DNA from: a virus | Length of the DNA: 64,000 bases | Strand: one strand, 5' to 3' | Virus genome (UHGV): UHGV-0311442 | Shown: piece by piece, positions 1 to 25,261 of the stretch | How the letters are laid out: each line of letters starts with the position of its first letter | Position numbering within the stretch: position 1 is the stretch's first letter | Program-made: the position numbers and the translations under genes | Notes under the pieces: model-generated | What the model saw: the letters and a program-made list of their open reading frames with translations, nothing else | What the model was told of the DNA's origin: nothing | The model's database searches: none

Positions 1-2689
1 AGTTAATTGCACCCCAAACCATGTCTTGCGTCAGTTCGAACTTACGGTTACTGCCCGGTGCGTTATTGTAGTTACGCATCGCTCTGACCATCGCAGTATA
101 GATGTGGTAGGCAATCCTCTGATTTCCTAAGAACATCATTTCATCGCCGTTAATCTCTGGTAAAGAGTGGTCAGTTTGTAACAGTTCGTTAGAACGTTCC
201 AACAAGCCAATAAAGGTTTCCGGTTCACCCATTTTCCTGAGGATACGTGCGTGCATGTCGTCAACAAACGCGGACCGCATCTGTTTCAGCTCGTTGATGT
301 ACCGTGGTGTTAGGCCATCTGCATCACGTAATAAGTTCAGGTAAATGTCTTCACGGTCTGCTTCTGATTCGGTATAAGCAACCAGGTGTTTGAGATAGCG
401 ATCCAAACCATGCAGAATCATCTTCTGCTGATCGTTATCGCATGTAACTAAAAGTTTACAGTCTTGCAGTCGAATAATACTGTCGTAGGCATTCTTATCA
501 ACACGCTGCCCTGCGGGAACCAACTCGTACTGGATACCGAAATGTTTCAACATTCCCTGGAGTCCAAGGTAGAACGAGAAGATAAAACCAAGCGACAAAG
601 ATTTACCCATCAAAGACAGCTCGGTCATTTCGCGAGGCACTTTCTGGTTATTAAAGCCCAGTACCTCTGCGATAGTTCCCACCGGTTCAACTTTGTTTCC
701 GTTCACACCGTAAAGCATGGATTTGTCATCCATTGCCAGGATTGTTTCACTACGCGGACGTTTCGCCACTGGCAAAAGTTTGGCAGCATCGGCGTCTCTG
801 AGTTGTTCGTCGTTAAAGAAGTTAACGGCTTCTTTGTAGTCGAAGTTCCACATATAGCCGTTCGCATTAAAGCTGGCAATACGACGTGCAATCTCCGTAT
901 ACTGACGCGGCAGATGTTGCGTAGGATCGAACACATTTGCTAAACGTGCATCGGTGACTTCGGTGTTTGTCGGGTCAACAGCACGTGTGATAATCGCGTT
1001 GGTTAACCAACGACCGTAATCGTTCGCGACCTTATCACTACGACGGACAAAGTTTTTACCGTAAGCGGTAGTCAGTGCGACAGTATCCGGTGCAACCTTA
1101 CGAATCGGTAAGTCCACACGTTGCCGACGCATGGTGTATTCGACACCATTAGCTACCCAAGTACCGTCCTCGGTCAAGCCTGGGATAGAGAAGCGAACGG
1201 TTGTTGGCTCACCACCGACTGGCTGAACACGTAAAGTGTGGTGCTCGATAGTTCCTGTAACAGAAACTTCTTTTTCCACCGTGTGGTTGTGAACCGCCAG
1301 ACCCAAACGTTGCGAACTGGCGACCGCCGCCAGCACGTCTTTGGTCATCATGGTCTGGTTGTATTGTTTCACCATCTGGTCGGTGACGTTCTCGGCCCAC
1401 CCTTCGTCGGTAACAAGTCGCTGAACCTTTTTCGGCTCGGCTTTAACGACGACATCTTTCTCGTGAACAGTAAGCGCTTCCCCGTAGGTTTCTTTCGGGT
1501 TATACGGGTTAGGTAGCTGAACGAAACGTTTAGACGATTCTGACAGGAACTGATATGCTTTAGAACTTAAGCGGCCCGCTTCAGCTAAGCGTTGTGCTTC
1601 CTGTTTAATAATCTCGTCATGTGGGATGACTTTCTCGACAACAATTGTCGTCGGTTTGACGTCTTCCTTCGGTTCTTCAATAACGACGTCTTCTTTTTCA
1701 TCGAAGGCGTTATCGGATTCCACCACAGCGTCATTAACAACGTCGTCATCGTCGACAACATCAACGGTTTCTTCTTCGACGTCTTTAAGGAAAACACGCT
1801 CGTCGCCTTCAGGCGTTAGGAATTCCGCTTCGTACGCGTTAGACGGTGCTTGTGTCATTACACGCACCAGCGTACGGTAGAACATCCTGGCCATTTGGTC
1901 GTCACTTAAACGACCGCCGGACGACTTACGCATTTTCTCTACAACACCCATGTTCATGGACGTAAAGCCCGTGTTGTGGGTGAAGATAAAGTTCATTCGT
2001 GACAGCTGAGTTAAATCCATTCCCGCGAATAAGGAATCGGATTGTTTTCCATAAGCCCAAGCAAACAATTCTAATAACCACAGCAAGTTGAAGTCCTGGA
2101 ACTTCTCAATCTTGCTCTTAACACGGTCGTTATAGGTTGTTTGAAACTTCTGGAACGAAGGCAATGTCGAACCCAGTTCAATAACGAAATAGTTCTGACG
2201 CATGTATTCTTGCGTGTCGTATTTGAACTGGTTAATCATCAATAGTTGGATGTTACGCAATCTATCGTACCAGGCTAACTGGGTGTCAGGATAGTAGTAG
2301 TGCGACAACATCGGTGTGTAGTTCTCGATCAGGAGAACTTTTAAGTCTTTGCGAACCAGATCGTCTGAGGTAAGACGACGCATCGGGCGGTTTGCACGGT
2401 GGTAAGCAAAGATAGCACGTTCTTGCCCCTGAACAGGTTTGTTGCGCGGATGACCGCTAATACCGTCTTCCGGTAATTTAAAGTGGTGACGAACCTGTGC
2501 AGGTTTTTCTAACGGTTGAATAATCTCGAGTGTTGCAGGTGGCGCTAATACCACCTGGTCGAGATCAATGACATGGAGTACAGAACCACGTGGTATCTGT
2601 AGCTTCTCGAGCGGGATAATCCTCGGATTACCAAACTCGTCAGTTTTACGCACCGAGAAGCGTTGGTTAAACTGTTTAATGAGCAGCAT
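1..2689 (-). CDS. Large protein truncated by the window edge (at least 896 aa); probable RNA polymerase large-subunit fragment by synteny
   Basis: Uninterrupted minus-strand frame from ATG at 2687-2689 to position 1; absent from the ORF track because it has no in-window stop. Starts 10 nt after the stop of the beta-prime-like ORF. Product is inference from position only. Confidence 0.45.
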   Translation of the reverse strand, partial: MLLIKQFNQRFSVRKTDEFGNPRIIPLEKLQIPRGSVLHVIDLDQVVLAPPATLEIIQPLEKPAQVRHHFKLPEDGISGHPRNKPVQGQERAIFAYHRANRPMRRLTSDDLVRKDLKVLLIENYTPMLSHYYYPDTQLAWYDRLRNIQLLMINQFKYDTQEYMRQNYFVIELGSTLPSFQKFQTTYNDRVKSKIEKFQDFNLLWLLELFAWAYGKQSDSLFAGMDLTQLSRMNFIFTHNTGFTSMNMGVVEKMRKSSGGRLSDDQMARMFYRTLVRVMTQAPSNAYEAEFLTPEGDERVFLKDVEEETVDVVDDDDVVNDAVVESDNAFDEKEDVVIEEPKEDVKPTTIVVEKVIPHDEIIKQEAQRLAEAGRLSSKAYQFLSESSKRFVQLPNPYNPKETYGEALTVHEKDVVVKAEPKKVQRLVTDEGWAENVTDQMVKQYNQTMMTKDVLAAVASSQRLGLAVHNHTVEKEVSVTGTIEHHTLRVQPVGGEPTTVRFSIPGLTEDGTWVANGVEYTMRRQRVDLPIRKVAPDTVALTTAYGKNFVRRSDKVANDYGRWLTNAIITRAVDPTNTEVTDARLANVFDPTQHLPRQYTEIARRIASFNANGYMWNFDYKEAVNFFNDEQLRDADAAKLLPVAKRPRSETILAMDDKSMLYGVNGNKVEPVGTIAEVLGFNNQKVPREMTELSLMGKSLSLGFIFSFYLGLQGMLKHFGIQYELVPAGQRVDKNAYDSIIRLQDCKLLVTCDNDQQKMILHGLDRYLKHLVAYTESEADREDIYLNLLRDADGLTPRYINELKQMRSAFVDDMHARILRKMGEPETFIGLLERSNELLQTDHSLPEINGDEMMFLGNQRIAYHIYTAMVRAMRNYNNAPGSNRKFELTQDMVWGAIN

Positions 2690-2698
2690 TGCTTAGCC

Positions 2699-4318
2699 TT
2701 ATGGGTTCTTTAATAACGCTTGCGTTGCACGTTTAATCACGTTGTTGATAGGATTGATTTTAAAGTTCCCATCAGAATCGAACCAGTAGTTTTTCGAGTG
2801 TATCCAATTCCGGTTTTCCTCGAGCGCTTCCTGGGACATAGGCGCGTTAAACGACCCGGTATCGCCGTCGTAGTCACCCCCTAAGCCACCTAGACGTGAG
2901 GGGTGTGGTGCCATAGACTCAACGAAGGTAGGAACCGACCGGTCAGGGTAGCTGATAGCCCCTCGGGGTTTTTCAGTTTCCCAGTCATCTTCCAGTTCTT
3001 TTAAGTATAAAGATGACGTGGTGGTCTCCAATCTTATGGTCGATGAATACGTCGAGCCTCGGCCTGTAACGGGATAACGTGTAACGAAACCGAAATAATC
3101 GTTCCAAAGTTCGTAGCCCGACAAATAAAGCAATTCGACGAGCGTCATACCGTGGACGAATTTTCGGTCAAACGTTTTAGGAAGTTCTTCAATATCGTAG
3201 AACACCTTAAAATGTTTGGTGTCTTGGTAAACCAACGCAACGTAGTGGGTGTCGTCCAACATAATCGGTTGATGGCGAAGCTCGCGAGCTTCCATTCGGT
3301 TGATTAAGGATTCAATCCCATCGTCGGTGGTAAAGGTGTCGTATACACGACCACCTACTTCCAAGAATTCACGTTTAAGGGTTTTGGTGTTTACGCCGTA
3401 AAGGTTGCCGTCACCAGCACGGATGTTACCGAGGTAACGTTCACGTATCTGGTATTGGGCGACAGGGAGTAATGCTTTTAAACCCTGGTATAAACCAATT
3501 TTGGTGTCGGTGGGACGAATAGCGTCTTCACGACCCATGCACTTAGACCCCGTCGAGAACGAGGACAGTACGTTACGTGTCCCGTTCATTAATTTACGAG
3601 ACGTCACTTTACGACGTTGGAAACCCCCTTTACCGTCTTGGATGTTAAAGAAATACATCCAGATATCGTTGAAGGTTTGTTGCAGCTTCCAGCGTACGGG
3701 GTTAGTTAATTCAACACGGGTTGCTCGGTCAGGGATCGCTCTGGCGAGTGATACCAACCGACGATACATCCCGCCGATTTCTTCTTCCTGCTCTCTACCA
3801 TCTTGTCGAATTACTAAATCGCGTAAACCCGCGGGTAACACGAGAACGTATCGACTAAGACTAACGGGACGGAATTTCAAAAAGAAATCCACGGTTTCGT
3901 CACGTTGTAGGGACTCGTTACGCTTAGGTTTTAAATCGTTATAGTGACTGAGGAAGAAGTTAAAACCGGTATCTGCGCCTGGGTCTCCCGGCAAGGCCGG
4001 TTCGAAATCTTTTTCTTTTTCGCTCCACGTTGCGTAGCGTTTTCCAGAACAAATTTCTTCGTAGAGTTGTTTGAGTTGGAATAACGCCAAACACACCGTC
4101 GGCGAAATGATATCGAGTTTAATATCGATATAAGAGAAAGTAGAGTCTCGCGCTTCACTCCCCGTGAGTCCAAATATCTCTGTAGAGTAAAGACCTTCGG
4201 GGTGAAAGTTTTTTGTTAACCCCTGGAAAGTATCCGTGGTCGTGACGGGTCGTAATCGCGACACAAGAGACTTGTTTACATTGAGCAGATAAAAGTCAAC
4301 CCAATTAAGTTTATTCAC
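2699..4318 (-). CDS. Multisubunit RNA polymerase beta-prime-like subunit, N-terminal fragment (split gene)
   Basis: 539 aa, GTG start with AGGAG 8 nt upstream. Contains GGDYDGD (compare beta-prime NADFDGD catalytic loop), preceded by RYPVTGRGSTYSSTIRL and N-terminal EIFG...IDIKLDIISPTV resembling beta-prime regions. No zinc finger. Confidence 0.6.
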   Translation of the reverse strand: MNKLNWVDFYLLNVNKSLVSRLRPVTTTDTFQGLTKNFHPEGLYSTEIFGLTGSEARDSTFSYIDIKLDIISPTVCLALFQLKQLYEEICSGKRYATWSEKEKDFEPALPGDPGADTGFNFFLSHYNDLKPKRNESLQRDETVDFFLKFRPVSLSRYVLVLPAGLRDLVIRQDGREQEEEIGGMYRRLVSLARAIPDRATRVELTNPVRWKLQQTFNDIWMYFFNIQDGKGGFQRRKVTSRKLMNGTRNVLSSFSTGSKCMGREDAIRPTDTKIGLYQGLKALLPVAQYQIRERYLGNIRAGDGNLYGVNTKTLKREFLEVGGRVYDTFTTDDGIESLINRMEARELRHQPIMLDDTHYVALVYQDTKHFKVFYDIEELPKTFDRKFVHGMTLVELLYLSGYELWNDYFGFVTRYPVTGRGSTYSSTIRLETTTSSLYLKELEDDWETEKPRGAISYPDRSVPTFVESMAPHPSRLGGLGGDYDGDTGSFNAPMSQEALEENRNWIHSKNYWFDSDGNFKINPINNVIKRATQALLKNP

Positions 4319-4347
4319 GCTAAATCTCCTGATACGGATTAAACGTT

Positions 4348-7300
4348 ATGGCTAAAAAAGGTAAAGATGATTTCGATGAAATCGATCTTGATAACATGGA
4401 CGACTGGGACGATTTTGATGAGCCCCCTCGTCAACAAGACCAATCGCGTAACCCGGTCATGGACACATTTCGTGCTGCCCGTAAGTCGGCGTTGTCGACT
4501 ATCTGGCCCGAAAACAAACGTGATCAGGTTATTTTAAAAGGGATGCCTAAACCTGCGGCAGAAGCCTACGAAGGCTATCAAAACGTTAAAGCTGCAGGTC
4601 AAGACATTCTGGCCCATACGAAAGACGAGATTGAAAAGACGTCTCGCGTCGTCAAGATGCAAGCGAGACAGTTAGGTCCAACACTGAAACGGTATTTACC
4701 GGAATCCGTAACACGGAAAATCGACAAGTGGGCACGTAACGATCAAATCGACTATGGGAATTACGATCCTAAACAAGCGATGATGGATCGTGAGCTGGAC
4801 AGCGTGTTCTCAGGCGCACCGCAAACAGCGGACCAGCAACGTGAGGCGCAAGAGGGGATGGTTGAAGACCGCTTGCGCGACACGATTAAGGACATGAAGT
4901 CCGACGCACTGTTCCAGACCGTAATCGGTATTGCAAAAGACGTCAACTTAACGACTAGCCTAAGTCGTGGCGTGTTGTTGAATGTTCAGCGTAAGCAGTT
5001 AGAGCTGCAATATCGGACGCTGTTTGCTTTGCAGGATATTGCGAAACTCAAACAAGACGAGTTTGCACGCAACACCCCGGCATTAGAAGCCATCGTTAAG
5101 AACACGGCACTACCCGACTACGCGAAGGAAGAGTTTTCTGAAATTCGTTGGGCTAATGTAAAACGTAAAGCTGCGGAGTGGATGAACCCCTTACACTACG
5201 CAGATAATTTCATTGGCCAGATTCGCGAAAACGCGAAGAAGAAAATCTCGAACATCTTTAGTGATGGTCGTGGGATTCTAGAACAAGTTCTAGGGATGGC
5301 TCAGGAAGATGACTTTGACATGTCGGACAGCTCATCGTTGTCTCCTGACCGTCGTAACACAAACTCGCGCAATAAAGCGGCAGGTTTTGCAGGTGGTTGG
5401 TTAGCAAAACGTCTCCTACAACCACAGATCGAGCGACTTCAGAACTGGACGCGTGGCGAGCTAGAGAAAAACCCAGAAGTCATGAAACGCCTACAGTTGG
5501 CGAAGTATGGCTTTGGAAATTTGTCGTCTATTTCTAACTCGGCAATAGCGGGAGAAACAAGCGGCCCGTTAGCTGATCTGTTTCGACTAATGCACGATTT
5601 GGGGCTAGTTAACCCGCTACGTCGCGAAACGTTAGCATTAGACGATCGCTCTGCGGAATCTCTTTCTGCTGCGGCGAAGTTCGATCGTAAAGCTTACCTT
5701 AGTATCACAGAAGTTATTCCGACGTTACTGTCCGAGATTAACAAATCTATTCGTCGTGGGTATGGCGAACACCACGATCAGGTTTATGACTTGACCACGC
5801 GTGGTATGGTCGATCGTAAGGTTATTGGCAATCGTGTACGTAAGGCCGTTGCTAATGACGATCAGCGCAAACGTTTACAGACGTACATCAACGACACTGT
5901 CGACTTTATCGATAAAGATAAAACGCTTGATAGGAAAACACGTCAAGCGTTAGCGGACTACATCGAGTCTCGTGCCTCAGAAGGGAAAGCGTTCGATGTA
6001 GGGTCTTTATTGAAAGACCCGATGCACATGTATCGTTACATGAACGCAAACGCTGTGGAAGCGATTCAGGGTGTTTTAGAAGCCCGTTCTGCGGAACTGG
6101 TTGGTGGACACCATGAACTGAGTAACGCGATTTCAAACAAAATCGCCGCTATCCAGTCAACGATTCGCGCACGACAGGACACTGTTGATGCTGCGTCTGT
6201 GATTTACGGCGAGAATGCACTTCGTGATTCCGGTATTTTTAAATACGATGCGAAGAAAGACATTTTCGAGGTCGATAAGGACATTAACGATCCCTATACG
6301 TTATTTAATGACCTGTCGATGGGTAAGACCCGCTCTGGACGTTCGTTAACCCGTGAGCAAGAGATTCAGCGTAAATTGCAAAACGGTTCTGCGCTGGGTG
6401 ATTACTTGCGACGGATGGGTGCAGGCGCAGAGCCGAGCTTTGAAGACAAAGAACTGTCCAATGTACGTGGCGGTGGAAAAGGAGGTCGTGGTCGCGGTTT
6501 AAGCGCACGCCAACTCGCTGCGGTACTTTATGGAGAGAAATCCACTAACTTTGTTGAACTGTTAAGCAGTCGTCCAGACACGAACGCCGGGTTGGAACAG
6601 CAATTCGACCGTTTGATTGATGCTGTACGTAAACAGCCCGAATCTAGCATCGTGCAAGACATCCTCAAACACGTTAAGAACATGGATGAGGAAGGTATTC
6701 TTCTAGCCAGTTTAGGCGGTAGTCGTGATGACGGTGACGAACCTGAAAGTTCGGGTGAATCAGGCCGTAAACGTCGTCGTAAGCGCAAACGTATTGTACT
6801 AGGCGAGACAGGTTTGTTACGTCGCTGGGCTGGGGTGCTTTGGGATACCGGTTCTGGTGTAGGACGGTTTGGTAAGAATCTGTTCCTACGTGGGAAAGAT
6901 CGCCTACAAGCATTAGGTGGTTTTATTCGTGGGAAATTCTCAGGCGGTTCCTCCGAAGGTCCTGGCGTATTTAGCCGACTGAAAGGGTTAGTAACTGGTA
7001 CATTATCGACGGGTTGGAATTCTGCTGTAGCTTTCGGTAAAGGCGTTTTAGGCGTTCGCGACATCTACGATGAACGTGGTAACGTCGTATTACAAGGAAG
7101 TCGTTTAGAAGCTGGGGAATATTACCAGGCTGACCCGAAAACTGAGAAGCTGATTCAACTTAAAACTCTCGACGATATTAAACTGGGACGTGACATCGTC
7201 GACGAAGCGGGTAATTTAATCTTAGCTGCTGCTGATTTGGCTGCCGCAGGTAAACTGCGTTTCTACAAAGGCGGTAAAGTTCAAGCGCTTTTCCAGTACA

Positions 7301-10300
7301 TTTCTGGGAAGGCAGGAACGGCGGTAAACAAAGCTGTGACTTTACCGAAGAAACTTCTGGGTTTCATTTCGCCTAAAGCGGCTTCGTTGTTCGAGAAAGC
7401 ACGCGAGTGGTTAAATGAGGTTCCAGAGGGTGCAGAGAAAACCCGTTTACAAAGCATGATTTCCCGCGTAACGGGAATGCCAGCTCGTCTGTGGAACAAT
7501 GCAAAACGTGGGTTTGAGAAGCTCAAAGAGTTGGCTTCTGATAATCCGTTGACACGTTGGTGGCAGAACCGTAAGGAAGGGGGTTCTGGTGGTGGGTTTA
7601 GTGTGTTCTCATGGTCGAATGGCCGTAAAACTAACCACATCTTAATCCGTATCTACAAACTCCTTAACCGGAGATTGCCAGGTGAACCTGAAGATGACAC
7701 CTGGACAGAACAGATGGAGCGGAATACGGGGGCCAGTTCAGTTAAAGGATTATTCCAACGTGCTAAGGACATACGCGAAGGGTTCCGTGAACATTTTCAA
7801 GGGTTCCGGGATTGGCGTGGTCGGATGCGTGACAGAATGTCCCGTTACCGTAGTGCGGTAGGTGGTCGTCTTTCTCGTTGGGGTGGTGCAGCACGTGATT
7901 GGTTTGACCGTTTCCGTGGTCGTGCAAGCGATATGGTCGATACCTTCCGTGATCCGCGTTACGACATTGGAACACGTTATCGAATGGAGAGTCGTTTAGC
8001 AGGACGCGATGACGACGTTGCTGAGTTTTATCGTCAACACATCTACGCAAGAGGCAAGGTGTCTAAAACACGTATCATCGATGCGGCAAAAGAAGACTTG
8101 GATACCGTAACGGATAGCGCTGGACGTGTGATTAATAAAGGGAAACAGAAAGCCCGTAGCGTTGGGTCGGTTTTACTGGAACGCCTGAACCGAATGGTTA
8201 ATCTTCAGGAAATGTCGTGGTTTAATACCATGCGTGATTCTGCGGAAAAAGCAGGTGCTTCGGATGGTTTGTTAAGAACCATGTTCAGTAAGTTCGGTCA
8301 ACGTAACAAGCCACCTGCCAGTGATGAAAAACGCGATTACTTCCAGTTCTTCCGACGCCGTCGTCGCTCTAAGGAAGAGGAAAAGGCTAAGAAAGAGGCT
8401 GAGAAGAAAGGCGGTAAACGTGGGGTAATGGATTTCCTTAAAGGACTGCCGTTGGTAGGGCCGATTGTGAGTATTTTAGGCACAGTGGGTTCAATCTTAG
8501 GTAAAGTCGCAAAATGGGGAATCTTTAAGCCGGTTGGGTTTGCAGGTAAAGCGTTGTGGAACGTTGGTAAGTTTGCTGTGACCCGTTTGGCTGTTCCTGC
8601 GGTGAGTGCTGTCGCGACGGCAGCATCTGCAGTGGTAACTGCGGTTGGCTGGCCGATTATCGGTTTGGTCGCTGCAGGCGCTGCGCTGTCTTGGTTTGCG
8701 TATAAAACTGCAACCCGTGTGAATGCTCAGTATCTGGATAACATGCGATTGGCACAGTACGGATTTAGAGATCACGATGAGTGGTCTTCCGACGATGGCG
8801 CAAAAGCACGTTATTTAGAAGACAACTTGAAACCGTACATCTCTTATACAGAGAATGGCCAAGCACAGTTGCGTGGTTTGTCCGGTGACGACGTGAAGAA
8901 ACTGGCCGAAGGGTTTGGTACTAACGTAGAAGACAAAGGCGAAATGCTGGCGTTTACTGCGTTTATGTTACAACGTTTTGTGCCGATCTATTTACGTTGG
9001 ATTACGGCACTGAAATCCATGGATAATGATATCGCGTTAGCAGATGTCGGTAATCCTGCGAAAGTGTCGAAAGCGGACATGCTTACCATCTTTAACAAAA
9101 TGAAGATGACAAAAGATGCGCCTGCTTTTAAATCACTGACAGACCCCCGTAAAGTTAACCAAGGCTGGTTCTCTAAAGCGTGGGATTTCGTGACCTTCAC
9201 ACCGGCAGAATTTTTGTCAGGTGAAGAAGTTGTCGAAGCACAAGATCGTGTTTTCCGGTCTATCAACATGCGCCGTGACGATAAGCGTAAGGAAACAACT
9301 GGAGCCGGTGCTGTGCCTGAAGGACATAAAGTTGCTTCTGTGGCAGAATCTTCGCAGGTACTCGCGAAGAACGATACCGAGCGTAACGAAACTGTTGCTA
9401 AAGCTGAGGGTTGGGAAGACGGTACTGAACAGGTTCAAATTCAAGTTGACTGGAGAGCATTACCTGAGAAGAAAGATTTGGACGCGATGGAATCCGTCCG
9501 TTGGAAATCTTACGGTGTGAAATCTGTTAATGAGACAACACGTACCCTCTTTAGGTTGCTTGAGAAAGAAGTGTTGAAAGACACGGATATCAAAAATTGC
9601 ATTTATAAGGGCGATTGGAAGAAAGCAATTTCTGCGATTGCGCCTGATGCAATTGGTGGCCCAAAAGAGGAGCGTTACAAGAACTGGTTCTATAATCGAT
9701 TCTTACCTGTATTCATGACCTACGTTTATGGTGTAAAACGCTACGTACCTCATGCAGATCCGTTGGATTTGAAACTCACAGGGGGTTTCCTCTATGAGCT
9801 GGCACTGATGATGCGTGGTGCTTACAACATGAAAGGGGGTATCCGTCAGTCTGTGTGGGAAATCGCATTTAACCCGTTAGGAGGCGATGCGAATACCGAT
9901 GCAGGTTCAGTGAGGGAAGAATTAGCAACGCTGAAAGAGTTGTCTAAAGAACCCGATCTGGCTGTAAGGAACATGCTCAAAGAAACACCGAGCACACCTA
10001 AGCGTATGACATGGAAATCGCCAGCGACAAACTCCAGTGTCCATCAGACGAATGAAGATAACAAAGAGCGTTATAAGGGAATTAACAGCTATGGCGAAGC
10101 TTCAAACGACGGATACTTACCGAAAGGTGGTCAGTCCTACGGTACGCCAGGTGACTTATCACAAGTTGTTGGCGATATGGGTATAGGGAACTATGCGAAG
10201 TATTCCACTGGACAATCTGGCATCACCCTCGGTGAGTTACAAGACGGTGATTACAAATCGTTAGTGACTAAATACCCAAGGGAAATGCTTGGCAAACCGA

Positions 10301-11514
10301 TGCAGTCAAATACTGAAGCCATCAAGTCATTGATTATTGACGCGGCAAACATGGTGGGTGTTCCACCATCTGTTGCGATTGCAATGGCACAAGCAGAATC
10401 TGGCTTACAGTATGGCAACTATCCTGGCGCATCCTCTGGTAGACCGAGAAGTAATAAGATGTCTGCCGCTGGCCTGTTCCAATTTACCAATGGCACTTGG
10501 AATGGGGTTATGAAGCAGTACGCCCGAAGATACGGTATTCCACAAACCGACCAGTTCGACCCGTGGGCTAACGCAATCTTAGGTGTTAACTTCATTAGAG
10601 ACAACATCAAGACCGCACAAAAGGATCTGGGTGGAATTGCCCCACCTCCGGCAGTAGCGTACCTATACCACTTCTTAGGCCCAGGTGGTGGTGCTGAGTT
10701 CCTTAAAGCCTGGAAAACCAATCCTAACGGGTCGCCCGACAAAGTGAAGTACATCACACCTGCCGTTCTTAACGGTAATGAAGGTGTTTTCTATATCATG
10801 AACGGGAAGAAACGCGTTAGGATGCGTACGATCGGTGAGGTTGTCGAGGAACTGAACCGCCGTATGGGTGCGGTTGGAACCAACGAGATTGCAGCAAATC
10901 CTGCGTCTGCGAAAAACATGACGAAAGGGTTATCACCAGTTCCATCGTCTCCTGCAATTGCTGCTGGCGCAGCTAACGATCCGTCTATTGCTGGTCCGGC
11001 AGATAACCTGCCAGCCGCGAACGAGGCGAATCGTGACTCCGCTTTAGCAGACAAAGGTGCGATGGGCGCTGAAGATATTAAAGCTGCAACGGGTGGTGGT
11101 CCGGCTGTGCCGAGTCCTGGCGGTGACGTCACGCCAAGTGATGCGTCTGTCGTTGTTGAAACGGTGGGTCAAAATGCGCGTGCTGACGGTCTGGGCGAAG
11201 AGGAAGTTGCCAAAGTAAAAGAAGGTGCTAGACAGCAAATGGAGAAATCCGCACGTCCTGCACCAACGGTAACGTCTGATGCACAGACTACACCAACAGT
11301 GAACAGTGGTGATCCGATCAGCGTACAGCAGCTGGCGGTTGCAAAAGAGTCTGCGGGCTATCTGAGAGAGATTGTAACAATTCTTCGTCAGAGACCACAG
11401 GCTATGCAGCCATCCCCAGCGACCTCGGCAGCTTCTGCTCCGGGTTCAGCATCACGTAACATCGCGGTTGAACAACCTGCCCGCCAACTCGACGTTGGTC
11501 GTAAACGGGCGTAA
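4348..11514 (+). CDS. Giant virion/ejection protein with transmembrane segments and lytic transglycosylase (SLT) domain
   Basis: 2388 aa, ATG at 4348. Acidic N-terminus (DDFDEIDLDNMDDWDDFDE), poly-basic GRKRRRKRKR, hydrophobic segment cluster (about nt 8420-8710), SLT motif AMAQAESGLQYGN...AAGLFQF...YLYHF (about nt 10300-10790), Ala/Pro-rich tail. Confidence 0.85.
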   Translation: MAKKGKDDFDEIDLDNMDDWDDFDEPPRQQDQSRNPVMDTFRAARKSALSTIWPENKRDQVILKGMPKPAAEAYEGYQNVKAAGQDILAHTKDEIEKTSRVVKMQARQLGPTLKRYLPESVTRKIDKWARNDQIDYGNYDPKQAMMDRELDSVFSGAPQTADQQREAQEGMVEDRLRDTIKDMKSDALFQTVIGIAKDVNLTTSLSRGVLLNVQRKQLELQYRTLFALQDIAKLKQDEFARNTPALEAIVKNTALPDYAKEEFSEIRWANVKRKAAEWMNPLHYADNFIGQIRENAKKKISNIFSDGRGILEQVLGMAQEDDFDMSDSSSLSPDRRNTNSRNKAAGFAGGWLAKRLLQPQIERLQNWTRGELEKNPEVMKRLQLAKYGFGNLSSISNSAIAGETSGPLADLFRLMHDLGLVNPLRRETLALDDRSAESLSAAAKFDRKAYLSITEVIPTLLSEINKSIRRGYGEHHDQVYDLTTRGMVDRKVIGNRVRKAVANDDQRKRLQTYINDTVDFIDKDKTLDRKTRQALADYIESRASEGKAFDVGSLLKDPMHMYRYMNANAVEAIQGVLEARSAELVGGHHELSNAISNKIAAIQSTIRARQDTVDAASVIYGENALRDSGIFKYDAKKDIFEVDKDINDPYTLFNDLSMGKTRSGRSLTREQEIQRKLQNGSALGDYLRRMGAGAEPSFEDKELSNVRGGGKGGRGRGLSARQLAAVLYGEKSTNFVELLSSRPDTNAGLEQQFDRLIDAVRKQPESSIVQDILKHVKNMDEEGILLASLGGSRDDGDEPESSGESGRKRRRKRKRIVLGETGLLRRWAGVLWDTGSGVGRFGKNLFLRGKDRLQALGGFIRGKFSGGSSEGPGVFSRLKGLVTGTLSTGWNSAVAFGKGVLGVRDIYDERGNVVLQGSRLEAGEYYQADPKTEKLIQLKTLDDIKLGRDIVDEAGNLILAAADLAAAGKLRFYKGGKVQALFQYISGKAGTAVNKAVTLPKKLLGFISPKAASLFEKAREWLNEVPEGAEKTRLQSMISRVTGMPARLWNNAKRGFEKLKELASDNPLTRWWQNRKEGGSGGGFSVFSWSNGRKTNHILIRIYKLLNRRLPGEPEDDTWTEQMERNTGASSVKGLFQRAKDIREGFREHFQGFRDWRGRMRDRMSRYRSAVGGRLSRWGGAARDWFDRFRGRASDMVDTFRDPRYDIGTRYRMESRLAGRDDDVAEFYRQHIYARGKVSKTRIIDAAKEDLDTVTDSAGRVINKGKQKARSVGSVLLERLNRMVNLQEMSWFNTMRDSAEKAGASDGLLRTMFSKFGQRNKPPASDEKRDYFQFFRRRRRSKEEEKAKKEAEKKGGKRGVMDFLKGLPLVGPIVSILGTVGSILGKVAKWGIFKPVGFAGKALWNVGKFAVTRLAVPAVSAVATAASAVVTAVGWPIIGLVAAGAALSWFAYKTATRVNAQYLDNMRLAQYGFRDHDEWSSDDGAKARYLEDNLKPYISYTENGQAQLRGLSGDDVKKLAEGFGTNVEDKGEMLAFTAFMLQRFVPIYLRWITALKSMDNDIALADVGNPAKVSKADMLTIFNKMKMTKDAPAFKSLTDPRKVNQGWFSKAWDFVTFTPAEFLSGEEVVEAQDRVFRSINMRRDDKRKETTGAGAVPEGHKVASVAESSQVLAKNDTERNETVAKAEGWEDGTEQVQIQVDWRALPEKKDLDAMESVRWKSYGVKSVNETTRTLFRLLEKEVLKDTDIKNCIYKGDWKKAISAIAPDAIGGPKEERYKNWFYNRFLPVFMTYVYGVKRYVPHADPLDLKLTGGFLYELALMMRGAYNMKGGIRQSVWEIAFNPLGGDANTDAGSVREELATLKELSKEPDLAVRNMLKETPSTPKRMTWKSPATNSSVHQTNEDNKERYKGINSYGEASNDGYLPKGGQSYGTPGDLSQVVGDMGIGNYAKYSTGQSGITLGELQDGDYKSLVTKYPREMLGKPMQSNTEAIKSLIIDAANMVGVPPSVAIAMAQAESGLQYGNYPGASSGRPRSNKMSAAGLFQFTNGTWNGVMKQYARRYGIPQTDQFDPWANAILGVNFIRDNIKTAQKDLGGIAPPPAVAYLYHFLGPGGGAEFLKAWKTNPNGSPDKVKYITPAVLNGNEGVFYIMNGKKRVRMRTIGEVVEELNRRMGAVGTNEIAANPASAKNMTKGLSPVPSSPAIAAGAANDPSIAGPADNLPAANEANRDSALADKGAMGAEDIKAATGGGPAVPSPGGDVTPSDASVVVETVGQNARADGLGEEEVAKVKEGARQQMEKSARPAPTVTSDAQTTPTVNSGDPISVQQLAVAKESAGYLREIVTILRQRPQAMQPSPATSAASAPGSASRNIAVEQPARQLDVGRKRA

Positions 11515-11521
11515 CAGTAAT

Positions 11522-11551
11522 CGGGGGTAGTTACCTACCCCCTACTTTTTT
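11522..11551 (+). terminator. Rho-independent terminator-like hairpin after the giant gene
   Basis: Stem GGGGGTAG/CTACCCCC, loop TTAC, followed by TACTTTTTT. Confidence 0.5.
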
Positions 11552-11562
11552 AGAGGTATAAA

Positions 11563-13734
11563 GTGGACGCTAGAACAGCTAACGACTCAAGCTGGGTCAA
11601 AAGCCTCTTTAACGGCGTGTTGGATGGCCGAGATGAACGTTTCCTGGCCTTGCGACGCTACTCCAACGGTATGTTATCGTTCGAGGACACCACGTTAGGT
11701 GGCAGTAAAGCGATTAACACACCGCCCCAATTTACATGGTTTGCAGATCCGCCATCGACTGGCGCATTTGCACAACCCGACAACCCGAGAGCCGAAACCA
11801 AAACATTCTCTAATAACCGAGAAACAGGTTCGTATAAACTCGGTACTTATTTCTACGAAAGTATTAATCAGAATTCGTTTTATGTTCACTGTCGGTTCGG
11901 TAAACCGAAATATCTGGGTATGGCCGCATTCTTTGCGAACATGTACGACTCCAACCTAGCGTACTTGGCCCGCACTGGTGACTATCCAGGTATGATGAGA
12001 ACGATGGTTTCGTATTTAGGTGCAGCCGCAATATGGGCCACTGTAGGCACCGTTGCTTTTGCAGTTATTCTCATCACGCCACGAATTCTAAAAGCGGTGT
12101 TGAACAAACAAACATCGCGTTACTATTACGTCAAGCCAACGATGCATTTGTATTTACGTGCCGTGCAAAACATTCTAAACACGCAACTCATTTATCGTCG
12201 TTTGGTTCCCACAGGCGTGCTCGGTAATTTCAAACTACAAGAAAATACCGATGATGGTACAAATTCATACAGCAATGATAAACAAGACTGGTATGCTTCG
12301 TTACCTACTATCTGGAAAGATAACGGGGAGTTTGACGTCTACCGAATGATAAACCGCTATCAAACATTAGCGAATTATCAGACCAAAGCCATAGAGCAAA
12401 TGCGCGTTGAAAGCGGTGGGGACGAAGAAGCATTTGCAAGAAAACTACGTGCGTTTTATAACGAAGGGATGTACTCCAAACGCGTTATTAATGATGCGGG
12501 TAGTTTCGAAGTTTCATTGCATGACTTAGAAACGGTTGCTCAAAAAGACAACGCTTATAAAGCGCCTTTTGAAAATATTAACGATCAAGAGTCTAAGTTG
12601 GTTGAAGGGATCACTGGCACACTGACCGCTGGCGGTACCGCAGATGAAATCGATGCGAACACAAAGAAACTTCGAGAATCGATGGCAGCAAACATGGCTG
12701 CTGCGGAAAAGGCTGAAAACGAAATCGGTGGTGAGGATGTCCCTGATATAGCTAAGATACAAGAATGGGCAGATGCGGGTTCTAAAGAAAACGTAGGGAC
12801 CTTCTTTAAAGATTTCGTCGAAATGGGTAAAAACTATATCGATGGTATTAAGGAAAATGCGCTTTCTGAAATCCGTAACGGCTCACAATGGGTGTCGTGG
12901 CGTATCGACGCTAAAGACACGGTTTCTCGTTCGTTCTCCAACTCTACAAAAGAGCCAGAGATTTCAGGCACCGTTAACTCGTTAACCGCGAAAGCACGTT
13001 CGTTAGAGGTCAACCTTTCCGGCGGTCAAACGGGTTTCAGCGCCGTAGATGCTTTAGTTTCCGGGATTAAGTCCGCGATGCGTGGCGTTGCCGACACCTT
13101 ACATTTGACAGGGATCATGTCGTTGTACAACTCTTCGGTAATTGACTTTCCGGAGGTGTGGGATAGTTCGGATGCATCGGGAGATGACATTACGTTAACG
13201 ATACCGTTACGTTGTTGGTCTGGCAACGACTTGGATATCTTCCAAGACTTGCTCGTTCCACTGTCATTCTGGATCGCTGCGGTTTGTCCGCTGGCTACAG
13301 GTAAACAATCTTTTACTCACCCGTTCTATTTAGAGTGTTACTCACAAGGACGCTTTTCTTTCCGTAATGCGATGGTGACGTCAATGTCACTGCAATTCGG
13401 TGTGGGTGGTTTAGGTTGGCGGCCAGGTGATTCCGTTCCGCTGTCTTGCGACATCTCTGTTACTATTCGTGACTTGACTCGCGTTATGTACATGCCCATT
13501 GTTACCGACACAGGTGTGTGGGATGATGATAACAAATTCAGTGAATTTATGGCGTGTTTAGGTGGTGCTACGTTGTACGAGCGTACTAACGGTATTGCAC
13601 GTGCCAAGATTAATGCGAGCATCTGGGCACAAAACTGGGCATCTGCGTGGTCACAGGGTAGTTTTATTAACTCGGCACTGGATGTTATCCCAGCACGCCA
13701 GATCGCGAACATCTTCTTGCCGCAAGCACGTTAA
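11563..13734 (+). CDS. Hypothetical protein, probable virion component (723 aa)
   Basis: Long ORF with GTG start and AGAGG upstream, directly after the giant virion gene; one hydrophobic segment (AAAIWATVGTVAFAVILI). Product unknown. Confidence 0.6.
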   Translation: MDARTANDSSWVKSLFNGVLDGRDERFLALRRYSNGMLSFEDTTLGGSKAINTPPQFTWFADPPSTGAFAQPDNPRAETKTFSNNRETGSYKLGTYFYESINQNSFYVHCRFGKPKYLGMAAFFANMYDSNLAYLARTGDYPGMMRTMVSYLGAAAIWATVGTVAFAVILITPRILKAVLNKQTSRYYYVKPTMHLYLRAVQNILNTQLIYRRLVPTGVLGNFKLQENTDDGTNSYSNDKQDWYASLPTIWKDNGEFDVYRMINRYQTLANYQTKAIEQMRVESGGDEEAFARKLRAFYNEGMYSKRVINDAGSFEVSLHDLETVAQKDNAYKAPFENINDQESKLVEGITGTLTAGGTADEIDANTKKLRESMAANMAAAEKAENEIGGEDVPDIAKIQEWADAGSKENVGTFFKDFVEMGKNYIDGIKENALSEIRNGSQWVSWRIDAKDTVSRSFSNSTKEPEISGTVNSLTAKARSLEVNLSGGQTGFSAVDALVSGIKSAMRGVADTLHLTGIMSLYNSSVIDFPEVWDSSDASGDDITLTIPLRCWSGNDLDIFQDLLVPLSFWIAAVCPLATGKQSFTHPFYLECYSQGRFSFRNAMVTSMSLQFGVGGLGWRPGDSVPLSCDISVTIRDLTRVMYMPIVTDTGVWDDDNKFSEFMACLGGATLYERTNGIARAKINASIWAQNWASAWSQGSFINSALDVIPARQIANIFLPQAR

Positions 13735-13750
13735 TGTTTGAGAGGAAATA

Positions 13751-14314
13751 ATGGCTAATACGCTATTAGGTAAATCAGGAAAACAACTGGTTTATGAGTT
13801 ATTAGTAAAAAAGAATCCTGGTTTGGTAGAGAAAGGTATTACAATCGATAAGTTGAATTTTGGCACACCGTCACATATTCCTGCGGTAGAAACACCAGAA
13901 ACTCAATTTACGCGATTAAATACCCAACTTAGCGTCCAGGGAATTATTGAACAGAAAACGTTTGGTAAAATTGACGTTATTTATCGTCGGTTGGATTTAG
14001 AGCACCTCTTAGGTGACTTTGTAGTTTCTGTTGCGGGTATTAATGCGGCTACGGTATCTGAGGTACTACAGCTTTTTCGCACTAAGTACAATTTGCAGAT
14101 TACCGACGATGAAGTTGAGAACCCAACAGCTGCACCAGACAGCAAAGATAAAACCATCATTATCATGAATGGGAGATCTTTGGCGTGGACAGGTCGGCTG
14201 GAGGTGTACTTAACAGAGCTGCCGTCCGACGGTAAGGATATTTCGAAGTTGATTAAAGTCACCGAACTTGACGGCTTGACGTATATCTCTTCTGGAATTG
14301 TTCCAGGCGCTTAA
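13751..14314 (+). CDS. Hypothetical protein (187 aa)
   Basis: ATG with GAGAGG upstream; followed by a bidirectional terminator. Confidence 0.55.
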   Translation: MANTLLGKSGKQLVYELLVKKNPGLVEKGITIDKLNFGTPSHIPAVETPETQFTRLNTQLSVQGIIEQKTFGKIDVIYRRLDLEHLLGDFVVSVAGINAATVSEVLQLFRTKYNLQITDDEVENPTAAPDSKDKTIIIMNGRSLAWTGRLEVYLTELPSDGKDISKLIKVTELDGLTYISSGIVPGA

Positions 14315-14337
14315 AAAAAGAAAAAAAAATAAGAAAG

Positions 14338-14378
14338 TTAACCTACCTCCGAAAGGAGGTAGGTGCTTTTATTTATTT
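14338..14378. terminator. Bidirectional rho-independent terminator between convergent genes
   Basis: Stem ACCTACCTCC/GGAGGTAGGT, loop GAAA, A-run upstream and T-rich run downstream. Confidence 0.7.
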
Positions 14379-15203
14379 CGCCAAGTCTGCTTCTTTTACA
14401 AAGATGCCGTCGGCGTTCAGGTAACCTTTACGGTCTTTGATTTCGTGCCACGCCAAAGAGAAACAATGGCGAATGTTAAGACGGTAGTAAAGAGCCAGTT
14501 TTGCAAGACGGTGCAAAGCCCAACTTAACGTAACGGTGTCCAGTTCAGTACATAAGAACGCAGTAGCGAAGATTTCAGTAGCCTCTAAATACAACTGGTG
14601 TGGATATTTGGTATCGTTTAAACGTTCTTCAACGTCAGCGACATCGTCTACCTGCAACTGTAAACCGTGATCGATGACTTCACCGGTTGACATTCCGCAA
14701 GTCTCTCTGTCTTTATCCAGTTCCAGGATGTTTACCAGAACCACCAATGCATCCCCGATACCGTCCATGATCAGTTCAGGTTTGTTTTTACTGATACCTG
14801 TTGCGATTTCACCAAACTCTTCAAAGAACTTCGTGATTTGTGTTTCCACTTTACCGTTGTCGAGGATACCACGTTCCTTAGACCAACCTTTAACACGCTC
14901 TACACAGTTCTCGATAGAATAGACCGGAACCGCTACGGTGTGCATTACCGTACCGTTAAATTCGGCACCTGTAAGTTTAAGCGGCGCTTCAATCGTTTCA
15001 ATATCCAGTTCCTGATTGCCGGTGTGGCGTTTACCTTCTACACGAACACGGTTAGTACCAGGATTTACTCCGATGGTGTAGATAGCATCAAACTGAATCG
15101 CTTTCTCGTCCATAGCGCGTAGTTGTGTGTTAACTTCTTCCAGGAAGTTACCTGGGTTAAGAACGATGTTGTAGATAGCGTTGATGTTAAAACGTTCGCC
15201 CAT
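14373..15203 (-). CDS. MazG-like nucleoside triphosphate pyrophosphohydrolase domain protein with unknown N-terminal domain
   Basis: 276 aa; FFEEFGEIA...ELIMDGIGDALVVLVNILEL matches the MazG EExxE / D-x4-L pattern; ATG with GGAG upstream. Confidence 0.45.
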   Translation of the reverse strand: MGERFNINAIYNIVLNPGNFLEEVNTQLRAMDEKAIQFDAIYTIGVNPGTNRVRVEGKRHTGNQELDIETIEAPLKLTGAEFNGTVMHTVAVPVYSIENCVERVKGWSKERGILDNGKVETQITKFFEEFGEIATGISKNKPELIMDGIGDALVVLVNILELDKDRETCGMSTGEVIDHGLQLQVDDVADVEERLNDTKYPHQLYLEATEIFATAFLCTELDTVTLSWALHRLAKLALYYRLNIRHCFSLAWHEIKDRKGYLNADGIFVKEADLAK

Positions 15204-23920: not shown

Positions 23921-24596
23921 ATAAAGCGGCATCTCGTGGGTCGACACCGACCCACTCTGCCATAAACCGGATATGTTCCTTAAACGGGTTAACCCCGTCT
24001 TGTTTGATTTGTTCAACCAACACTCCGGTCAGTTCTGGTGTGAGCATGGCAGGGTGTGTGATGGTAAAGCTCGGAATCGGTTTTTTCAAGTGTGTGGCGT
24101 TAAGCTTAATCCACTCGAACCAATCGTACATTATCCAGCAATCCCACGCCAATGACAATCTCCCCGGTGTGAGATCTTCTAACGACCAAGACACTAATTC
24201 AACTTGTACGTTATTGTAGTACATCCGAAACAGATTCAAAAAGGCTTGAAGTTCTTCGCCCGTTAAATCCGTATAAGGCCACGTATTGATGGTCAGAGTG
24301 GGTTTTTCAATTGGCGAATGCATTTCGATTTCAAGCAACATACACTCGAATTCGTTTTTCATTGTTGCCAATAATTCAGTAGGCTGCGCATTAATCAACG
24401 CGCGCTTATCCCGCTTCCGCCACTCTTCATCCCATTTTTCAAATCCAAGTACGCCAGCCCAAGCTTCTGTATAGCGACGACGATAAACGTCGTAGTCTAG
24501 CAATGTTAAGCTTTCAGGCTTAACGGCTTTTACCCAACCTAAACGCGTATCAAATAACGTATCAATATCGATTAAGAAACGCCGAGATAATCTCAT
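23874..24596 (-). CDS. Hypothetical protein (240 aa)
   Basis: ORF in the minus-strand block. Confidence 0.5.
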   Translation of the reverse strand: MRLSRRFLIDIDTLFDTRLGWVKAVKPESLTLLDYDVYRRRYTEAWAGVLGFEKWDEEWRKRDKRALINAQPTELLATMKNEFECMLLEIEMHSPIEKPTLTINTWPYTDLTGEELQAFLNLFRMYYNNVQVELVSWSLEDLTPGRLSLAWDCWIMYDWFEWIKLNATHLKKPIPSFTITHPAMLTPELTGVLVEQIKQDGVNPFKEHIRFMAEWVGVDPRDAALFSLARPAQDVQTPPS

Positions 24597-25261
24597 GACG
24601 GATGGCCTATGTTGTTACCGATATGCATCGCTTTTAGGTACGCCGACCACGTACGCGTTGCTTTAGAACTCGTTCGCTCCGCCCCAGGCAAATCAATACG
24701 CCCTTTACCGGTTTGGCGCAACGATTGATAGAAAGCACGTTGTAGTGCGTCGTTACCACCACGCGCCCACAAGAACTCTTTCAGTGTCCAGTCGTGACCA
24801 TCGGAGTACATGATGTATGCCTCTGGGAAGGACACCCCGGATGCTTTAGAAGGTCCGACGACTTGACCGGAGAGTTTATCGCGAACTTTGTCGTTTTTCG
24901 CAACCGCCATTTTCTTTTCTTGCATCTGTGTCTGACGACGGACAGGCAAGCGTAAGACTAAGTGAGGGTAACGAGTACGGTGATAGACACCCGTTTTTGG
25001 TTCTGTTAGCCAGAGTCGTTGTTCCAGGTTTACCCCGAGAATTTTGCACACCTCGATATTGCGCAGGTGGTCAATTTCGACTTTACTTCCCACCGGGTTG
25101 TAAATAGGTAAACCGTTACGAAGTCGGTTAAACTGTTCGTCGGTCATTCGTGCGAAGGCTTTCTTCGCGGCTTCGGCATTAATGCCAGAAGGGTCTACCA
25201 ACTTTAAGATTTGTAAGGCGTAGGCTTCCGCCTTTTTACGCCGTGCTGGTTCGAGTTTCAT
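24593..25261 (-). CDS. Hypothetical protein (222 aa)
   Basis: ORF; its stop overlaps the downstream gene start. Confidence 0.5.
   Translation of the reverse strand: MKLEPARRKKAEAYALQILKLVDPSGINAEAAKKAFARMTDEQFNRLRNGLPIYNPVGSKVEIDHLRNIEVCKILGVNLEQRLWLTEPKTGVYHRTRYPHLVLRLPVRRQTQMQEKKMAVAKNDKVRDKLSGQVVGPSKASGVSFPEAYIMYSDGHDWTLKEFLWARGGNDALQRAFYQSLRQTGKGRIDLPGAERTSSKATRTWSAYLKAMHIGNNIGHPS

Follow-up and report, generated by a model that had tools for sequence, protein, structure and literature searches.

Which polymerase is encoded by a locus in which an open reading frame (ORF) with a catalytic loop like that of the RNA polymerase (RNAP) beta-prime subunit stops soon after this loop, a second ORF starts immediately behind it, and a giant gene with a lytic transglycosylase domain runs off in the opposite direction? 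The question is raised by the first 11,514 nucleotides (nt) of a 64,000-nt stretch of UHGV virus genome UHGV-0311442, hereafter the window. We conclude that the window very probably belongs to an SPN3US/Erskinevirus-like jumbo phage of about 224 kb, that the two polymerase genes (ORF1 and ORF2) encode two different subunits of a virion-packaged multisubunit RNAP (vRNAP), and that the divergent giant protein is a tail protein of the type represented by phiKZ gp181 and SPN3US gp239.

An earlier note, made from the letters of this DNA, had described a 539-amino-acid (aa), beta-prime-like ORF with a DYDGD loop, a second ORF close behind it that stays open for at least 896 aa to the window edge, and a divergent 2388-aa protein with membrane segments and a transglycosylase domain. 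The ORF map bears this out (Table 1). ORF1 starts with a GTG at 4318, with AGGAG 7 nt upstream, and stops with a TAA at 2701-2699; ORF2 follows after a spacer of 9 nt, with an ATG at 2689 and 896 open codons to the window edge; and the giant protein has two hydrophobic stretches and a Pfam SLT domain. One figure had to be corrected: ORF1 does end shortly past the loop, with 53 residues remaining and not about 60. Since ORF1, ORF2 and the giant protein each have hundreds of length-matched homologues, they do not represent a chance pattern of ORFs.

ORF1 is 32% identical to phiKZ gp180 (E = 1e-73) and 86% identical to proteins of SPN3US-group Salmonella and Escherichia phages, with homologues in 315 phage records, all of those listed being at least 209 kb in size. 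A family profile built from 32 homologues matched the N-terminal beta-prime chain of the non-virion RNAP (nvRNAP) of phage AR9 (7s00_d, 4e-13) as well as bacterial, cyanobacterial and plastid beta-prime (1e-9 to 1e-6). Two colinear regions were aligned, one of which is the NADFDGD region of Escherichia coli beta-prime, residues 446-507. The AlphaFold (AF2) model, for which the phiKZ row was left out of the input alignment, had a mean predicted local distance difference test score (pLDDT) of 79.6, and Foldseek returned 581 PDB matches for it at E <= 0.001; all of the 50 listed are beta-prime chains, the best being AR9 beta-prime-N (3.6e-15). Within the loop, D482 is invariant, and D484, G485 and D486 are kept in at least 90% of 31 homologues. 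Collectively, profile and fold agree with the beta-prime likeness noted earlier, and no other protein family emerged among the listed matches. We conclude that ORF1 encodes the N-terminal part of beta-prime in a jumbo-phage vRNAP and ends just past the catalytic double-psi beta-barrel.

ORF2 runs off the window, and its full length was taken from a contig 97.3% identical to positions 1..13734, in which it encodes 1388 aa, with three aa differences in the shared 896. It matches phiKZ gp178 with E = 1e-93 and 26% identity. The profile of the full-length family (14 members) matched the Thermus beta subunit (1iw7_C) with E = 2.5e-8 in four colinear stretches. These are, in order, an IPxxTEDGxxxxNG motif (aa 502-518), the fork, the barrel and a GDK...NKG stretch; the first lies in the window and the other three past its edge, and the barrel region is the one that is significant individually. 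The alignment covers Thermus beta 395-463, 530-637 and 822-882, stretches that hold the fork and the second double-psi barrel, and the corresponding motifs can be read in the 1388-aa counterpart. The pairing of IPGLTEDGTWVANGVEY with Thermus IPLMTEDGSFIINGAD is weak taken alone; the family as a whole keeps N514, G515 and Y518 without exception. The predicted structure matched the beta-N subunits of nvRNAPs and the lobe domains of cellular beta. In the phiKZ nvRNAP structure the barrel, the flap and region a15 lie on gp71-73 (PMC8287921), and gp123 is therefore the lobe-bearing N-terminal beta piece. ORF2 is thus an N-terminal beta piece of the gp178/gp241 family, and not the rest of beta-prime. 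Among the relatives of ORF2, many have only about 550-630 aa and stop directly behind the conserved beta motif NGVxYRxRKQRGD (ORF2 aa 514-526), so that in other phages the N-terminal beta gene is split or interrupted there.

A third piece lies about 20 kb away from ORF1 and ORF2. This 222-aa ORF is 36% identical to phiKZ gp149 (E = 1e-43), and a profile of nine sequences matched E. coli beta 1158-1310 (E = 3e-4); it is the C-terminal beta piece of the vRNAP. The window hence holds three of the five vRNAP core pieces, namely N-terminal beta-prime, N-terminal beta and C-terminal beta. No middle or C-terminal beta-prime piece was found in the window, and neither is encoded beside ORF1; for the middle piece (gp42/gp80), the window was searched by tblastn with phiKZ gp80. 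On a related contig, a gp244-like candidate for C-terminal beta-prime, 87% identical to SEGD1_249, lies three genes beyond ORF2.

These roles agree with those described for SPN3US, where gp240 was assigned as N-terminal beta-prime, gp241 as N-terminal beta, gp218 as C-terminal beta, gp42 as middle beta-prime and gp244 as candidate C-terminal beta-prime (PMC5105663). In that phage gp240, gp241, gp218 and gp42 were detected in virions by mass spectrometry, and all four were lost from the virions of a gp241 amber mutant (PMC5105663). phiKZ injects gp180 and gp149 together with its DNA (10.1101/2024.03.24.586471; PMC10612078), and orthologues of N-terminal beta-prime are packaged or ejected in SPN3US, phiKZ and Goslar (PMC5105663; PMC10612078; 10.64898/2026.04.21.720040). 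From these relatives we infer virion location, timing and enzymatic activity for the products of the locus. ORF1 supplies the double-psi beta-barrel, with its DYDGD loop binding the catalytic Mg2+, and ORF2 contributes a phage-specific N-terminal domain, an acidic linker and the beta lobes, followed past the window edge by the fork and the second barrel. Going by their homologues in SPN3US and phiKZ, the pieces should be made late and come together with neither alpha nor omega, and their loading into the capsid would depend on N-terminal beta. The enzyme would then enter the early-infection vesicle together with the ejected DNA, and there it would transcribe early genes without need of the host polymerase (PMC5105663; PMC7598289; PMC10612078; 10.1101/2024.03.24.586471).

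The layout of the locus and the relatives of the window both point to a jumbo phage, as the earlier note had proposed from a likeness to phiKZ. In phiKZ, gp181 (2237 aa, with an SLT domain) is divergent from gp180, which is followed by gp179 and gp178, and the giant protein of the window is colinear with gp181; in phiEaH2 and SEGD1 the arrangement is as in the window. By comparison of coordinates, the divergent pair of giant protein and N-terminal beta-prime is present in phages of Escherichia, Serratia, Pseudomonas and Erwinia (phiKZ, phiEaH2, SEGD1, EC001, Moabite, 2050HW, Psa21, KEN49, NK1 and others), down to an ORF1 identity of 33%. Conserved gene blocks are a described trait of the Chimalliviridae (PMC10299810). 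Megablast of positions 1..11514 against the phage collection returned only jumbo phages at 70-75% nt identity (phiEaH2, Stratton and Asesino of Erwinia, and one Salmonella phage), the best, at about 74%, being an Erwinia Erskinevirus; the closest relatives are phages of 224-250 kb. The identical ORF1 protein occurs in 331 blocks of a public assembly collection, and the longest contigs with it (ENA metagenomes, NCBI assemblies) measure 223-225 kb and carry the same three genes. Salmonella enterica assemblies, of serovars Chester and Wangata, gave the nearest cluster representatives their names. The window is therefore part of a phiKZ-related, SPN3US/Erskinevirus-like jumbo phage of about 224 kb, of a type that is common in public assemblies and metagenomes and absent from the phage collection at the species level, with no match there above 75% nt identity.

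Other genes in the window, for a thymidylate synthase, a UvsX-like recombinase, RNase H, an SbcC-like protein, large virion proteins and a DUF7941 protein, are further jumbo-phage genes. The DUF7941 module is chimallivirus-specific according to the Goslar preprint, which proposes that it forms baseplate-anchored filament clouds (10.64898/2026.04.21.720040). When phiKZ gp54, gp55, gp68, gp71, gp74 and gp123 (chimallin and nvRNAP subunits) and the major capsid protein were used in tblastn, as was gp80, no match was found in the window, a result that for all of them is uninformative, given very divergent proteins and 64 of about 224 kb.

The giant protein aligns colinearly with phiKZ gp181 in BLASTP (aa 12-550 with 26-576 and aa 1463-2178 with 1366-2052, 21-25% identity). 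Its SLT domain was detected by Pfam at aa 1995-2093 (E = 2.6e-8; 33.9 bits against a gathering score of 21.3), and the region matches the structures 3bkh and 9xps of phiKZ gp144 (E = 2e-9). Alignment of AQAES with SIESA of gp144 places the catalytic glutamate at E2017, in the ES motif. Both hydrophobic stretches reach 1.5-2.0 in 19-residue Kyte-Doolittle windows. At least 80% of the protein is covered by 61 phage records, and each of those listed is a genome of 223-247 kb. With 61% aa identity to the same SPN3US-group phages in which ORF1 is conserved at 86%, the giant protein has diverged much faster than the polymerase pieces. During infection, the C-proximal SLT domain would cut peptidoglycan, and the hydrophobic segments plausibly enter the membrane and help to form an ejection conduit.

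What kind of tail component this is depends on the relative consulted. SPN3US gp239 is tail-associated and was called a tape-measure protein by its authors (PMC5105663). phiKZ gp181 is a muralytic, virion-associated lysin, listed in PMC5380687 (citing Briers 2008 and, for the device, also Fokine 2008) as a needle-like device that punctures cells and as a putative trimer. The giant protein might accordingly be a needle attached to the baseplate and not a tape-measure or tail-lumen protein, a possibility that we regard as real but the less likely one. The lysin domain near the C-terminus fits such a device, and 2388 aa in a fully helical state would far exceed a tail of the 200-nm class, by an estimate that takes 1.5 Å per residue and no structure. 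Against it stand the SPN3US authors' own naming and the domain plan of the protein. Tape-measure proteins typically pair central hydrophobic segments with a lysin domain, as is seen here. Neither the Goslar virion-structure preprint nor a 2026 jumbo-phage review deals with a gp181-type or tape-measure protein, and the 'gp181' of a phage G paper is an unrelated gene. We conclude that the giant protein is a gp181/gp239-type internal tail component, of the tape-measure or the cell-puncturing kind, two roles that our data do not separate.

It is very unlikely that the giant protein is a tail fibre, as GenBank and PHROGs have it, or a conventional siphophage tape measure. The 'tail fiber protein' labels speak for a fibre, but no fibre or receptor-binding domain was detected and SLT is the sole Pfam domain, so this database label has no support. 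As for siphophages, the small phages among the listed matches align to the SLT part only (6-9% of the query) and do so as T7-like internal virion proteins; hence the nearest full-length homologues are not siphophage tape measures, and those listed come from jumbo genomes.

A similarly slim chance attaches to the idea that the polymerase genes are the non-virion (middle and late) set. Both sets are split homologues of beta and beta-prime, and the best matches among solved structures are indeed nvRNAP chains, because the nvRNAP is the sole jumbo-phage polymerase among the PDB matches. The pairwise comparisons contradict it: ORF1, which finds gp180 so readily, shows no similarity to the nvRNAP paralogue gp55 (E = 0.1), and gp178 and gp149, the matches of ORF2 and of the 222-aa ORF, are annotated as structural head proteins. 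In addition, the synteny with gp181 is that of the phiKZ vRNAP locus, and the 86%-identical SPN3US orthologue was found in virions (PMC5105663). ORF1 thus belongs to the vRNAP set and not to the nvRNAP set.

The title of the earlier note spoke of a split beta-prime gene, which suggests that ORF1 and ORF2 are the N- and C-terminal halves of one subunit, with the bridge helix and the trigger loop in ORF2. The two ORFs are adjacent, with a spacer short enough to suggest translational coupling, ORF1 stops soon after the catalytic loop, and the GenBank and PHROG labels all read 'RNA polymerase beta subunit'. We nevertheless find this highly improbable, since the ORF2 profile follows beta in four colinear stretches and its model fits nvRNAP beta-N and the cellular beta lobes, with no beta-prime chain among its fold matches. 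Moreover, the continuation of beta-prime in SPN3US is gp42 plus gp244, and in both SPN3US and phiKZ it is encoded at other genome sites (PMC5105663). The title was therefore right in that ORF1 is a beta-prime piece of a split polymerase, and wrong about its neighbour, which is beta and not the second half of beta-prime. That the two are really a single longer gene, cut in two by an artefact of assembly or a frameshift, is hardly credible; the short spacer is the only hint of it. It is contradicted by the same two ORFs with the same lengths on six independent contigs and in phiEaH2 and SEGD1, the abundance of ORF1 homologues of 537-545 aa, and the presence of gp179 between gp180 and gp178 in phiKZ.

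Several points weigh against reading the locus as vRNAP genes beside a gp181/gp239-type tail gene. Expression, packaging and activity would carry over to this phage from its relatives. The RNAP pieces had no match in Pfam or NCBIfam scans, and single-sequence PDB searches returned only noise: nothing significant for ORF1 (the best being beta-prime at E = 0.4), laccases for ORF2 and nothing for the 222-aa ORF. Family profiles and predicted folds are therefore what the RNAP assignment depends on. The Foldseek TM-scores, at 0.3-0.46, are low, which is usual when chains are extended and have several domains. For the catalytic barrel of ORF2, past the window edge, the 97%-identical contig was the only source, and the search of the window did not locate the middle beta-prime piece. 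Finally, the literature roles of the giant protein conflict, with cell puncturing for gp181 (PMC5380687) and a tape measure for gp239 (PMC5105663).

Table 1. Features of the locus and of neighbouring parts of the window, with the basis of each assignment.
Feature	Position	Strand	Basis
ORF1, vRNAP N-terminal beta-prime subunit, 539 aa, phiKZ gp180 / SPN3US gp240 family	2699..4318	-	phrog_2986 E = 7e-234; match to gp180; profile; AF2 fold
DYDGD codons, aa 482-486, Mg2+-binding loop of beta-prime double-psi beta-barrel	2861..2875	-	direct reading
ORF2, vRNAP N-terminal beta subunit, aa 1-896 of 1388, phiKZ gp178 / SPN3US gp241 family	2..2689	-	truncated by window edge
ORF2 phage-specific N-terminal extension, aa 1-286	1832..2689	-	pLDDT ~90
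ORF2 acidic disordered linker, aa 287-351	1637..1831	-	pLDDT 27-37; 25 D+E vs 5 K+R
Beta motif IPGLTEDGTWVANGVEY, ORF2 aa 502-518	1136..1186	-	aligned to Thermus beta 117-133 IPLMTEDGSFIINGAD
Divergent spacer, 29 bp, between ORF1 start and giant-ORF start	4319..4347	.	coordinates
Giant tail protein with lytic transglycosylase, 2388 aa, phiKZ gp181 / SPN3US gp239 family	4348..11514	+	phrog_3201 E = 0; BLASTP
Two hydrophobic membrane-segment-like stretches, giant aa 1363-1388 and 1414-1451	8434..8700	+	Kyte-Doolittle
SLT / gp144-like lytic transglycosylase domain, giant aa 1981-2154	10288..10809	+	Pfam SLT; phiKZ gp144 structures
Codon of catalytic Glu E2017 of giant protein	10396..10398	+	alignment to gp144; direct reading
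Terminator-like GC hairpin (11523..11542) and T-run, directly 3' of giant ORF	11523..11552	+	consensus scan only
Tail-associated protein, 723 aa, at position of phiKZ gp182 / SPN3US gp238	11563..13734	+	phrog_3181 E = 8.5e-254; synteny
DUF7941 protein, 187 aa	13751..14314	+	PF25613, Pfam E = 8.7e-23
Two-way GC hairpin with T-runs between convergent genes	14341..14364		scan
Thymidylate synthase, 344 aa	16298..17332	-	Pfam
vRNAP C-terminal beta subunit, 222 aa, phiKZ gp149 / SPN3US gp218 family	24593..25261	-	phrog_3233 E = 6e-93

The spacer between ORF1 and the giant ORF has the same length, 29 bp, in phiEaH2. Two conventional promoters would not fit into it, so that the predicted late promoters of the two genes should either be very short or sit within the adjoining coding sequence. 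Sigma-70-type promoter matches are depleted in positions 1..15000 of the window, with 6 observed against 18.2 +/- 4.3 in shuffles, which is consistent with transcription independent of the host polymerase. We judged this consensus scan irrelevant to a phage that has its own polymerases, and the depletion was its sole outcome. The giant ORF has no obvious Shine-Dalgarno sequence, unlike ORF1. Downstream of it, the 723-aa protein occupies the same position as phiKZ gp182 and SEGD1_242; its SPN3US counterpart by position, gp238, is essential and tail-associated (PMC5105663). The thymidylate synthase covers the full 266-position Pfam profile and has about 80 residues extra.

The N-terminal extension of ORF2 (aa 1-286) folds confidently in the model and has no sequence match to cellular beta, nor any Pfam or PDB sequence match. 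It sits at the N-terminus in each of the best 150 of 426 cluster representatives, whose lengths group around 550, 1050 and 1400 aa, and SPN3US gp241 is likewise reported to have an N-terminal domain, of about 400 aa, that shows no homology to beta (PMC5105663). The fold search with ORF2 also gave SUKH-family structures, for which the extension is the most plausible site. We suggest, tentatively and as an improbable option, that it may hold a SUKH-type (Smi1/Knr4/Syd-like) protein-binding domain, which would either serve as the adaptor through which the finished enzyme gets into the capsid or take over part of the assembly-platform role of the missing alpha dimer. Sequence gave no SUKH link, whether the PDB was searched with a profile of the first 295 aa or Pfam, at permissive E-values, with 9 and with 44 family members, and the Aravind-lab survey of jumbo phages does not mention SUKH. 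As a conserved, confidently folded module, the extension merits a structural look.

For the annotation of such DNA, the result is that the window can be marked as jumbo-phage DNA, with three genes assigned to the virion RNAP and one to a tail lysin or tape measure. Public annotation is of little help here, since it places 'RNA polymerase beta subunit' on every piece and 'tail fiber' on the giant protein.

Among known systems, the Thermus phage P23-45 (10.1101/2022.12.01.518664) also has a virion RNAP genetically linked to a tape-measure-type protein. There, the tape measure itself begins with the RNAP, a single chain with two barrels, whereas the polymerase of the window is multisubunit, separately and divergently encoded and, in relatives, located in the head, so that the likeness is one of neighbourhood only. 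Internal virion proteins of the T7 gp16 type have SLT domains 32-36% identical to that of the giant protein, and both are virion-borne lysins for entry. The T7-like proteins, however, are head-internal core proteins of 40-kb podophages and cover only 6-9% of the giant protein.

The beta-prime of cyanobacteria and plastids (gamma, or RpoC1 plus RpoC2) is likewise broken past the catalytic barrel, and its chains are among the top matches of ORF1. According to a review, the phage and cyanobacterial split sites coincide (PMC7598289). Plastid RpoC1 continues for about 187 aa past DFDGD and ORF1 for 53 aa, so by this crude measure of length the breaks are near each other and not in the same place. 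Furthermore, the remainder of beta-prime is split again in the jumbo-phage vRNAP, unlike in cyanobacteria and plastids.

The best structural matches of ORF1 and ORF2 are the nvRNAPs of AR9 (7S00/7S01) and phiKZ (7OGP/8QUE/9RJS), which are alpha-less and have split beta and beta-prime. These solved enzymes are a paralogous set without detectable pairwise sequence similarity to the pieces in the window. In the nvRNAP the lobes (gp123) are apart from the barrel piece (gp71-73), whereas the 1388-aa chain of ORF2 holds both and the last approximately 220 aa of beta are separate. The nvRNAP chains also lack the N-terminal extension of about 290 aa seen in ORF2.

With phiKZ itself, the window shares the divergent layout of gp181, gp180 and gp178, together with a homologue of gp149. 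The annotated phiKZ gp180 ends with '...LGAD', in the middle of the DFDGD loop, and its continuation, FDGDTVSFNAVYSEEAIAE, lies past gp179 (8968-10440 and 11881-11985 of the phiKZ sequence). In phiKZ an insertion with gp179 in it thus breaks the gene within the DFDGD codons, precisely at the catalytic loop, whereas ORF1 of the window is continuous and ORF2 follows 9 nt on. A figure legend in the SPN3US paper mentions introns and a homing nuclease (PMC5105663).

SPN3US (Seoulvirus) comes closest, with gp239, gp240 and gp241 in the same order and orientation as in the window. The aa identities to the SPN3US group are about 86% for N-terminal beta-prime, 74% for N-terminal beta, 83% for C-terminal beta and 61% for the giant protein. 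With a genome of about 240 kb, against about 224 kb for the phage of the window, SPN3US is a different phage. Taken together, the homology, folds, motifs and synteny observed here make the locus a fairly close orthologue set of the well-studied SPN3US/phiKZ system, bringing no new mechanism to what is already established there, namely a host-independent, alpha-less, five-piece polymerase that is injected with the DNA.

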